From Escherichia coli (GTDB taxonomy: Bacteria; Pseudomonadota; Gammaproteobacteria; Enterobacterales; Enterobacteriaceae): DNA of 64,000 nucleotides. Both the position numbers and the translations under genes were made by a program. Under the pieces are notes generated by a model. The model did not search any database, was not told the origin of the DNA, and saw only the letters and a program-made list of their open reading frames with translations. Position 1 is the stretch's first letter; each line of letters opens with the position of its first letter. The stretch lies in the NCBI RefSeq assembly GCF_003334355.1, contig NZ_QOWP01000003.1. The stretch is one strand, 5' to 3'. Below, in pieces: positions 21,795 to 23,547 of this stretch.

Positions 21795-22553
21795 ATGAGC
21801 CTGACCCTCACGCTCACCGGCACCGGCGGCGCACAGGGCGTTCCGGCATGGGGCTGCGAGTGTGCGGCCTGCGCCAGAGCGCGGCGCTCGCCGCAGTATC
21901 GCCGCCAACCGTGCAGCGGCGTAGTGAAGTTTAACGACGCAATCACCCTGATCGACGCCGGGCTGCACGATCTCGCCGATCGCTGGTCGCCCGGATCGTT
22001 CCAGCAGTTTTTGCTGACGCATTATCATATGGATCACGTCCAGGGGCTGTTTCCGCTGCGCTGGGGCGTTGGCGATCCGATCCCGGTTTACGGCCCGCCG
22101 GATGAACAGGGCTGCGACGATCTGTTTAAACATCCGGGCCTGCTTGATTTCAGCCACACGGTGGAACCGTTTGTGGTGTTTGATTTGCAGGGGTTACAGG
22201 TCACGCCCCTGCCGCTCAACCACTCAAAACTGACCTTCGGTTATCTGCTGGAAACGGCACACAGCCGGGTGGCGTGGCTGTCTGACACCGCAGGCTTGCC
22301 GGAAAAAACGCTGAAATTTTTACGCAATAATCAGCCGCAGGTAATGGTGATGGATTGCAGTCACCCGCCGCGCGCGGATGCACCGCGTAATCACTGTGAT
22401 TTAAATACCGTGCTTGCGCTGAATCAGGTTATCCGCTCGCCACGGGTGATTCTGACCCATATCAGCCACCAGTTTGATGCGTGGCTGATGGAAAACGCAC
22501 TACCGTCAGGGTTTGAGGTGGGGTTTGATGGGATGGAGATTGGGGTGGCGTGA
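21795..22553 (+). CDS. phnP: Phosphoribosyl cyclic phosphodiesterase PhnP (metallo-beta-lactamase fold)
   Basis: 252 aa; HYHMDH metal-binding motif. Confidence 0.92.
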
Positions 22554-22554
22554 T

Positions 22555-22690
22555 GAGAGGGAATGTGCGCGCTGGCCCCCTCACCCTAACCCTCTCCCCA
22601 GAGGGGCGAGGGGACCGATTGTGCTCGATATTGAATATTGCGCTCGTTTTCTCCCTCTCCCCATTGGGGTGAGGGGCGATGCCTGCTCCA
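22555..22690. repeat. Two GC-rich imperfect palindromic elements (cccctcaccc...ggggtgagggg type), box C-like
   Basis: ccctcaccctaaccctctccccagaggggcgaggggacc and ctccctctccccattggggtgaggggcg read directly; family assignment is from memory and uncertain. Confidence 0.5.
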
Positions 22691-22699
22691 TACCCAACC

Positions 22700-23029
22700 T
22701 CATCGCCCATACTCATCTTCCATTCTCCGCTCTTCATCCTCCAGTTGCCGACGCTCCTGATCAAGCTGGCGCTGGCGATCGTCCAGCTGCCTGCGGCGAT
22801 CTTCAAACTGGCGGCGGCGGTCGTCATATTGTCTGCGCCGATCGTCGCTCACTTCACGCTGCCAGCCGTCGTCGCGCGAATCTTCATAGTCTCGCCCACG
22901 GTCAGGGTTATAAGCGTCATTAATCGCCTGCTGAATATTGCCAATGGTGTCGTCGATAATATCGGCCTGGGCCGGAACGGTGGACAGCGTGAGCAGGGTG
23001 AATAAAAGAAATAGCGGAAAGCGTTTCAT
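22700..23029 (-). CDS. yjdP: Secreted, highly charged repeat protein YjdP
   Basis: 109 aa; signal peptide MKRFPLFLLFTLLTLSTVPAQA then Arg/Asp/Gln-rich decapeptide-like repeats (DDRRRQYDDRRRQFEDRRRQLDDRQRQLD). Confidence 0.85.
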   Translation of the reverse strand: MKRFPLFLLFTLLTLSTVPAQADIIDDTIGNIQQAINDAYNPDRGRDYEDSRDDGWQREVSDDRRRQYDDRRRQFEDRRRQLDDRQRQLDQERRQLEDEERRMEDEYGR

Positions 23030-23097
23030 TAGCCAACCTCAAAAAGAAACTCTATCCACATTAATCATTACTCATCCATGCAAGTAGTGGATGAATC

Positions 23098-23547
23098 TCA
23101 ATTTCTCCGCTGCTCTATTGCCGTAATCGCCTCCACGCGTTGTTGATGACGACCGCCTTCGTACTGTGCGCCCAGCCACGCATCCACAATCATTTTTGCC
23201 AGTTCGAGGCCAACCACTCGTGAACCAAAAGCCAGCACGTTGGTGTCGTTATGCTGCCGCGAAAGTTGCGCGGAATAAGGTTCGCTACAGACGACCGCGC
23301 GAATTCCGGCAAACTTGTTCGCCGCTATCGAAATACCGACGCCAGTACCACAAATCAAAATCCCGCCATCAACCTCTCCGCCAGCAACAGCCAGTGCGAC
23401 TTGACTGGCGTAATGTGGATAATCAGTACGCTCTGACGACCAGGTTCCTTTATCAATCACTTCAACGCCACGCTCAACTAAATGTGCCACTATTTCATGT
23501 TTTAAAATGAAACCGACATGATCACAGCCAAATGCAATCTTTTTCAT
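23098..23547 (-). CDS. rpiB: Ribose-5-phosphate isomerase B / allose-6-phosphate isomerase
   Basis: 149 aa MKKIAFGCDHVGFILKHEIVAHLVERGVEVIDKG; RpiB/LacAB family. Confidence 0.95.
   Translation of the reverse strand: MKKIAFGCDHVGFILKHEIVAHLVERGVEVIDKGTWSSERTDYPHYASQVALAVAGGEVDGGILICGTGVGISIAANKFAGIRAVVCSEPYSAQLSRQHNDTNVLAFGSRVVGLELAKMIVDAWLGAQYEGGRHQQRVEAITAIEQRRN

Follow-up and report, generated by a model that had tools for sequence, protein, structure and literature searches.

An inverted BoxC (PIT/TMECO) pair with a shortened partner in the phnP–yjdP spacer of Escherichia coli

The phnP–yjdP spacer and its two elements

The window analyzed here is a stretch of 64,000 nucleotides, and its positions 22300-23100 are the reverse complement of MG1655 (NC_000913.3) with 801 of 801 bases alike, which identifies the window as E. 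coli K-12. The spacer between the convergent genes phnP and yjdP spans 22554-22699, that is, 146 bp between the two stop codons rather than the 137 bp given in an earlier note on this DNA. It contains two GC-rich palindromic cores, CCCTCTCCCCAGAGGGGCGAGGGG (22590-22613) and CCCTCTCCCCATTGGGGTGAGGGG (22653-22676), located just where that note had placed them, and both elements are intergenic, flanked by the stop codons of phnP (22553) and yjdP (22700). When the 64-kb window is searched with a 24-nt pattern that fits either core, with a loop of 3 nt and up to three mismatches allowed, only these two sites match, and 100 dinucleotide-preserving shuffles give no match. The cores had thus been described correctly, but the two-block view of element 1 had overlooked a third block, CCCCTCACCC, at 22577-22586. 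In the current RefSeq record, no repeat is annotated in the phnP–yjdP spacer. The features of the locus are as follows:

21795..22553, plus strand: phnP, the last gene of the phn operon, with its stop at 22553
22577..22612, minus strand: element 1, a complete three-block BoxC/PIT/TMECO unit of type A 'mm', exact match to TMECO no. 22
22577..22586, minus strand: second G-block of element 1, GGGTGAGGGG, from an inverted-repeat search; the third strand in the published triplex model
22590..22599, minus strand: first G-block of element 1, GGGGAGAGGG, which pairs with the C-block (Watson-Crick, one mismatch)
22601..22609, plus strand: left copy of the direct repeat GAGGGGCGA, a deletion end point in the O157:H7 allele
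22603..22612, minus strand: C-block of element 1, CCCTCGCCCC, from sequence and block comparison
22613..22630, minus strand: 5' flank of element 1 in C-G-G orientation, GAGCACAATCGGTC, common to other type-A copies in the alignment
22645..22652, plus strand: 5' flank typical of type-B (HPG2) copies, GTTTTCTC, from the alignment
22653..22676, plus strand: element 2, a two-block type-B remnant, CCCTCTCCCC-ATT-GGGGTGAGGGG, inverted relative to element 1, from the alignment and the ECamp083 allele
22671..22679, plus strand: right copy of the direct repeat GAGGGGCGA, the other deletion end point in the O157:H7 allele
22700..23029, minus strand: yjdP, with its stop at 22700, convergent with phnP

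The small protein encoded by yjdP has an N-terminus that resembles a signal peptide and contains a highly charged repeat; RefSeq names it 'DDRRRQL repeat protein YjdP'. The annotation of yjdP in strain H105 is 27 nt longer (357 vs. 330 nt).

Element 1 reads CCCTCGCCCC-TCT-GGGGAGAGGG-TTA-GGGTGAGGGG on the minus strand. Every base agrees with TMECO no. 22 ('type A mm', 93 min), an entry of Table 1 in Holder et al. (2015, PMC4666352), and NC_000913.3 has this sequence at 4,314,285-4,314,320, precisely the published coordinate of that entry. The published TMECO pattern, 5'-CCCTCNCCC N3-6 GGGNGAGGG N3 GGGNGAGGG-3' (Holder et al., 2015, PMC4666352), has its sole match in the 64-kb window within element 1, on the minus strand at 22578-22612. 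The same site is listed as HPGQ no. 51 of group HPG1, with its midpoint at 4,314,309 and distances of 101 nt to yjdP and 24 nt to phnP (Kaplan et al., 2016, PMC5100583), and the core of element 1 contains the exact 21-mer GGGAGAGGGTTAGGGTGAGGG with a C-rich tract approximately 3 nt upstream, the combination that defines HPG1. From the exact match at the published coordinate, the HPGQ listing, and the pattern match, it is nearly certain that element 1 is a BoxC/PIT/TMECO copy that has been catalogued three times before. According to Holder et al. (2015, PMC4666352), the motif was 'earlier described as BoxC', and Hoyne and Maher later found it anew as the PIT element; the suggestion in the earlier note that the palindromes resemble BoxC was therefore correct, since Holder et al. 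equate the motif of TMECO no. 22 with BoxC.

Both elements share with BoxC, in the Bergler/Bachellier nomenclature, a GC-rich, imperfectly palindromic, intergenic, and multi-copy character; element 1 shows no difference from it, while element 2 is a shortened copy. Among the TMECO/PIT elements (Hoyne and Maher, 2000, 2002; Holder et al., 2015, PMC4666352), element 1 belongs to type A with one mismatched triplet, and its sequence is identical to that of TMECO nos. 9, 16, and 19.

Element 2 was characterized by aligning the units of five K-12 loci that have inverted type-A/type-B pairs with those of this locus, all in the same orientation. Compared with six type-B copies, it aligns with one 12-nt gap, and the missing bases, GGGGAGAGGGCC, comprise the first G-block and part of loop 2. 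HPG2 copies have a conserved 4-nt T-rich region ahead of the C-rich region (Kaplan et al., 2016, PMC5100583), and HPG2, with this T-rich 5' flank, is the type from which element 2 would derive. The orthologous site of strain ECamp083 has the intact sequence CCCTCGCCCCATTGGGGAGAGGGCCGGGGTGAGGGG, a full type-B unit on the plus strand that is inverted relative to element 1, and the K-12 spacer equals the ECamp083 allele minus 12 nt with a GGGG microhomology under a single-deletion model. Furthermore, the C-block of K-12 element 2, CCCTCTCCCC, is complementary at every position to the block that is missing, GGGGAGAGGG, which argues for loss rather than gain. As judged from these alignments, element 2 is a type-B copy that has apparently lost 12 nt between two direct G-runs and would now form a simple hairpin. 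From the family consensus and parsimony, rather than from a rooted phylogeny, we infer a deletion from a full pair instead of stepwise gain.

With a C-block and only one G-block, K-12 element 2 does not match the TMECO pattern, which is matched by the orthologous site of ECamp083. It is for this reason absent from both published tables, and Holder et al. count phnP–yjdP as a single element; likewise, its two remaining G-runs are too few for the proposed quadruplex, so that the 12-nt collapse let it escape the triplex and G-quadruplex catalogues. The type-A and type-B units at phnP–yjdP are paired in the same inverted manner as the five TMECO pairs described in K-12 (Holder et al., 2015, PMC4666352). 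Their hairpins-inward layout is that of TMECO 17+18 (lldD-trmL), while the other four of the five listed K-12 pairs have the opposite layout, with G-blocks inward.

Spacer alleles in E. coli

The alleles of the spacer were surveyed with a 371-nt query spanning it; 40 rows were taken evenly spaced down the ranking of 5432 records, and representatives were fetched and aligned. At least seven spacer lengths exist among complete E. coli genomes (5426):

158 bp, ECamp083: 1 of 40 rows
146 bp, K-12 type: 22 of 40 rows (~55%), including one diverged variant at 96.5% identity
95 bp, 22AH104: 1 of 40 rows
76 bp, O157:H7: 2 of 40 rows
41 bp, 33E: 1 of 40 rows
34 bp, FDAARGOS_1288: 5 of 40 rows
27 bp, H105 and 181.1: 7 of 40 rows

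The annotations of phnP and yjdP are intact in every spacer allele examined, and the elements are therefore dispensable for both genes. In the sampled rows, the K-12 form of the pair is kept in about 55% of E. coli genomes, which indicates that the pair is not rapidly purged, and the pair is mostly or wholly missing in about a third, again with phnP and yjdP retained: approximately 17% have the 27-bp spacer without any block, and approximately 12% more have part of one block only. The collapsed element 2 falls in the 80-90% identity band with about 3012 records, while its intact form accounts for at most 189 records (bands of at least 95% identity), some of which are partial matches elsewhere.

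Several alleles are related by exact deletions. The O157:H7 spacer equals that of K-12 minus 70 nt, removed exactly between the 9-nt direct repeats GAGGGGCGA, over which the junction can slide. The 22AH104 allele equals that of ECamp083 minus 63 nt with a GAGGG microhomology and is otherwise identical, and FDAARGOS_1288 equals ECamp083 minus 124 nt. Compared in this way, the alleles indicate a locus that probably decays through recombination or slippage between near-identical family blocks. Published work reported raised variability of TMECO loci relative to control loci, as well as partial deletions of palindromic TMECO pairs that leave a hairpin, termed the 'palindrome effect' (Holder et al., 2015, PMC4666352), and the allele series agrees with both observations. 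The 27-bp haplotype was also considered as a simple excision or an empty site, but it is too diverged for this, with 13 mismatches under a single-deletion model. In 22AH104, the deletion created a four-block chimera, CCCCTCACCC-TAA-CCCTCTCCCC-AGA-GGGGCGAGGG-CCG-GGGTGAGGGG (199-245 of the retrieved locus), in which overlapping TMECO patterns are present on both strands.

Copies in K-12 and in other lineages

The family is multi-copy throughout the species. By BLAST, a 60-nt query matched every one of the 5426 complete E. coli genomes, at a median of 19 and at most 34 places in each, which answers the call of the earlier note for a search for other copies. K-12 was described to have 23 TMECOs (Holder et al., 2015, PMC4666352); an early K-12 GenBank record has 33 BoxC features of 51-59 bp, and other surveys give 32-33 copies of about 56 bp in K-12. 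Those values would fit the core plus the conserved flanks of the aligned copies; in the alignment of K-12 units, the 36-nt core is bordered by 5' flanks specific to each type and by a 3' flank that is conserved in part. TMECO copies have no bias in neighbor gene function, distance to the ORF, or operon position (Holder et al., 2015, PMC4666352).

Two other K-12 loci were compared across E. coli genomes. At adk-hemH, a BoxC-containing K-12 segment of approximately 160 nt is replaced by an unrelated sequence of approximately 55 nt in about 46% of genomes, and this short form is a replacement haplotype, not an insertion or deletion; at zntA-tusA, the element is kept in nearly all genomes. The 21 nt located 3' of element 1 (CAGCGCGCACATTCCCTCTCA, 22556-22576, minus strand) are alike at 18 of 21 positions to the spacer of the hrpB-mrcB BoxC pair, a similarity that only equals the best of 300 shuffles and may reflect chance or a weakly conserved BoxC 3' flank. 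A relic third element in the G-rich 3' end of phnP was considered and rejected, as there is only this 21-nt flank similarity and no block homology.

Beyond E. coli, the TMECO pattern was reported from 262 proteobacterial genomes (Holder et al., 2015, PMC4666352). When a collection of species-representative genomes was scanned for the exact 21-mer GGGAGAGGGTTAGGGTGAGGG, at least 120 stretches were found. The matches listed include Pseudomonas, Polaromonas, Bradyrhizobium, Ca. Contendobacter, and several Desulfobacterota-type metagenome-assembled genomes (MAGs), and outside Proteobacteria, they include Verrucomicrobiales, Ca. Gracilibacteria, and one Methanomicrobiaceae archaeon MAG. Among them, the Ca. 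Gracilibacteria copies are located on five long contigs of 82-489 kb with AT-rich flanks. A C-block is present at the expected distance in almost every match listed, and the flanks are lineage-specific. The non-proteobacterial matches may extend the reported range of the family, and MAG binning errors may account for some of them.

In Pseudomonas, the flank ...CTCGGTCAGTCCCCTC of element 1 recurs beside the copies, and most copies of the repeat belong to composites. Pseudomonas sp. dw_612 has a composite of approximately 161 bp, in which a type-B' and a type-A unit form an inverted pair, with a conserved spacer between them and their hairpins inward, and the Pseudomonas MAG EaCA-3 has one of approximately 130 bp with the same pair and orientation. 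The inverted similarity of these composites runs a few bases past the outer blocks (...ATCCA/CCCC...GGGG/TGGAT..., with slashes at the block edges). The 5' flank of the Pseudomonas composite, CTCGGTCAGTCCCCTCGCCCC, is that of the K-12 alx-sstT copy. The listed foreign loci together contain 188 elements: 84 are solo copies, and the others form 47 hairpins-inward pairs and five pairs with the layout reversed.

One proposal for what spreads takes the whole hairpins-inward pair, bounded by CCCCTCACCC ... GGGTGAGGGG, as a MITE-like unit that would be copied by a putative sequence-specific enzyme acting in trans and moved horizontally between phyla, with solo and two-block copies as its decay products; the intact ECamp083 form of phnP–yjdP and the ~161-bp Pseudomonas composite may be examples of it. 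The likeness to MITE-like composites (ERIC/IRU) lies in the 10-bp terminal inverted repeats of the full pair and in the recurrence of the hairpins-inward layout in Pseudomonas sp. dw_612, while the difference is that no target-site duplication, clean empty site, or cognate transposase was found for the BoxC pair. No clean empty site or target-site duplication is readable at phnP–yjdP, adk-hemH, or zntA-tusA, and when 942 ORFs located up to 2.5 kb from the copies in 120 listed foreign loci were all compared with one another, no recurrent transposase-like family emerged as a candidate mobilizing gene; the recurrent ORFs near listed foreign copies belong only to large housekeeping superfamilies, namely, ABC ATPase, LysR, histidine kinase, molybdopterin oxidoreductase, and MCP. 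Of 72,556 plasmid records, 233 have matches, and most of these are mislabelled chromosomes or large replicons of rhizobia or Azospirillum; matches are also found in three of 50,697 phage records. The link of the family to mobile replicons is weak. Taken as a whole, the proposal of a mobile pair is doubtful.

Predicted structure, function, and meaning

The palindromes are predicted to fold stably as RNA. Compared with shuffled controls and computed with Watson-Crick pairs only, the spacer reaches -63.8 kcal/mol on the plus strand (z -3.35) and -64.9 kcal/mol on the minus strand (z -3.03). Element 1 reaches -32.3 kcal/mol on the minus strand (z -3.1), its two strands spanning -23 to -32 kcal/mol, and element 2 reaches -18.2 (plus) and -16.3 (minus) kcal/mol with z about -2.8. 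DNA folding is weaker; three of the four combinations of element and strand outperform the shuffles, the exception being the plus strand of element 1 (z -0.77). The RNA folding proposed in the earlier note thus gave stable predicted structures on both strands, and with copies elsewhere in the genome, the motif is neither unique nor devoid of predicted structure.

In the published structural model, the C-block of the unit pairs with one G-block and the second G-block is extra, and in vitro the G-rich strand on its own folds into a G-quadruplex or a very stable intrastrand triplex (Holder et al., 2015, PMC4666352; Kaplan et al., 2016, PMC5100583). The type A 'mm' oligonucleotide of Holder et al., which differs from element 1 in loop 1 only (TTT vs. 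TCT), forms an intrastrand triplex by CD and NMR with a Tm of about 74 C (Holder et al., 2015, PMC4666352).

The reading that accounts best for this locus is that it holds a known selfish or neutral BoxC pair with no dedicated regulatory job here, whose sole demonstrated consequence is local instability, and we consider this reading very probably correct. In so far as it denies a function, it argues from absence, and several functional readings have to be weighed against it.

REP/BIME elements are also short, GC-rich, palindromic intergenic repeats that are often located between convergent genes. The statement in the earlier note that the palindromes are not REP holds, as the core GCC[G/T]GATG has no match on either strand of the 146-bp spacer; BoxC further differs in its three-block structure and in having no RAYT-like or other transposase gene beside its copies. 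A REP-like role in RNA would have the hairpins, located in the 3' untranslated regions, block 3'-to-5' exonucleases and stabilize the phn and yjdP messages without terminating them. Stable hairpins are predicted in both transcripts, their placement right after both stop codons fits such a role, and the deletion alleles tend to retain a hairpin-forming remnant. However, family copies are more often located upstream than downstream of ORFs (Holder et al., 2015, PMC4666352), at no fixed distance, and the elements are missing at this locus in many genomes, which makes such message stabilization improbable.

Another reading regards the elements as a regulated non-B DNA switch among triplex, G-quadruplex, hairpin, and duplex states that would pause polymerases and be selected for local variability or for tuning of expression. 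The triplexes of the motif have a Tm of 70-82 C and stop the polymerase in primer extension (Holder et al., 2015, PMC4666352), a K+/Mg2+-dependent transition between G4 and hairpin was reported (Kaplan et al., 2016, PMC5100583), and the greater variability of TMECO loci and the microhomology-deletion series described above would fit replication slippage at a structured site. Nevertheless, the DMS footprint in vivo is that of a duplex, not a triplex (Holder et al., 2015, PMC4666352), and in the earlier tests, as far as they are recounted in the same paper, RNA polymerase, reverse transcriptase, and conjugation were unaffected, no effect on replication or transcription was seen in vivo, and DNA polymerase was stopped in vitro. 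Deletions between direct repeats of 5-9 nt require no triplex, and the third block of element 2 is lost in most genomes, which leaves no triplex or G4 there. Selection for such a switch at phnP–yjdP is unlikely.

The earlier note had also proposed that the palindromes could terminate the phn operon, and a (bidirectional) terminator for phn and/or yjdP would agree with the convergent genes on either side and with the strong hairpins predicted for both strands. Yet no T/U run follows any hairpin on either strand; a scan of 22300-23200 for terminator-like sites (a GC stem with a T run) found none in the spacer (22554-22699) on either strand and two matches that are both inside yjdP. When Hoyne and Maher (2002) tested PIT/BoxC elements, they saw neither promoter nor terminator activity, as summarized by Holder et al. 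(2015, PMC4666352); these assays were made on copies other than the one at phnP–yjdP and apparently in other genomic contexts. In addition, phnP and yjdP stay intact in the third of sampled genomes that lack most or all of the pair, whether blockless or with part of one block. In related searches, the best Rfam matches at a permissive E-value have 10-17 bits against thresholds of 37-137 bits (E > 2), which is chance level, and the 3'-end supplements of Adams et al. (2021) have no entries for yjdP or phnP. A terminator here is very unlikely. A specific binding site for a nucleoid protein, topoisomerase, or regulator, which the extreme conservation of the 36 nt within and between genomes would fit, is just as far-fetched, since the work cited here on TMECO/PIT/HPGQ elements names no binding protein, copies have no link to gene function or ORF distance, and no neighbor gene recurs in the 120 foreign loci listed.

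Under the preferred reading of a selfish or neutral pair, the history of the locus may be outlined as follows. The spacer holds two BoxC units in inverted orientation, members of a non-coding repeat family dispersed between the genes of E. coli and many other bacteria, and element 2 has apparently lost its first G-block and part of loop 2 between direct G-runs and become a simple hairpin. Both elements would act as selfish or neutral repeats at phnP–yjdP, where their near-identical blocks would promote deletions by slippage or microhomology and thereby local instability; as a by-product, the convergent transcripts of phn and yjdP would have strong hairpins without a U-tract in their 3' untranslated regions.

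The feature is an ordinary, already catalogued repeat, for which BoxC, PIT, TMECO, and HPGQ (HPG1/HPG2) are synonyms, and the additions made here are small, namely, element 2 as the 12-nt-collapsed type-B partner and the series of spacer alleles. The label BoxC/TMECO suffices for the locus, and its treatment as a candidate terminator, sRNA, or operator is unneeded. Among the 5426 genomes, the locus provides a clear natural example of BoxC decay via exact deletions between its own blocks, and the deletion series supports the published link between the family and instability. The 36-nt unit is nearly identical from E. coli to Pseudomonas and apparently in other phyla, and neutrality alone hardly accounts for so little change across such distances, which suggests that the unit is either copied by a sequence-specific machinery or put to a conserved use.
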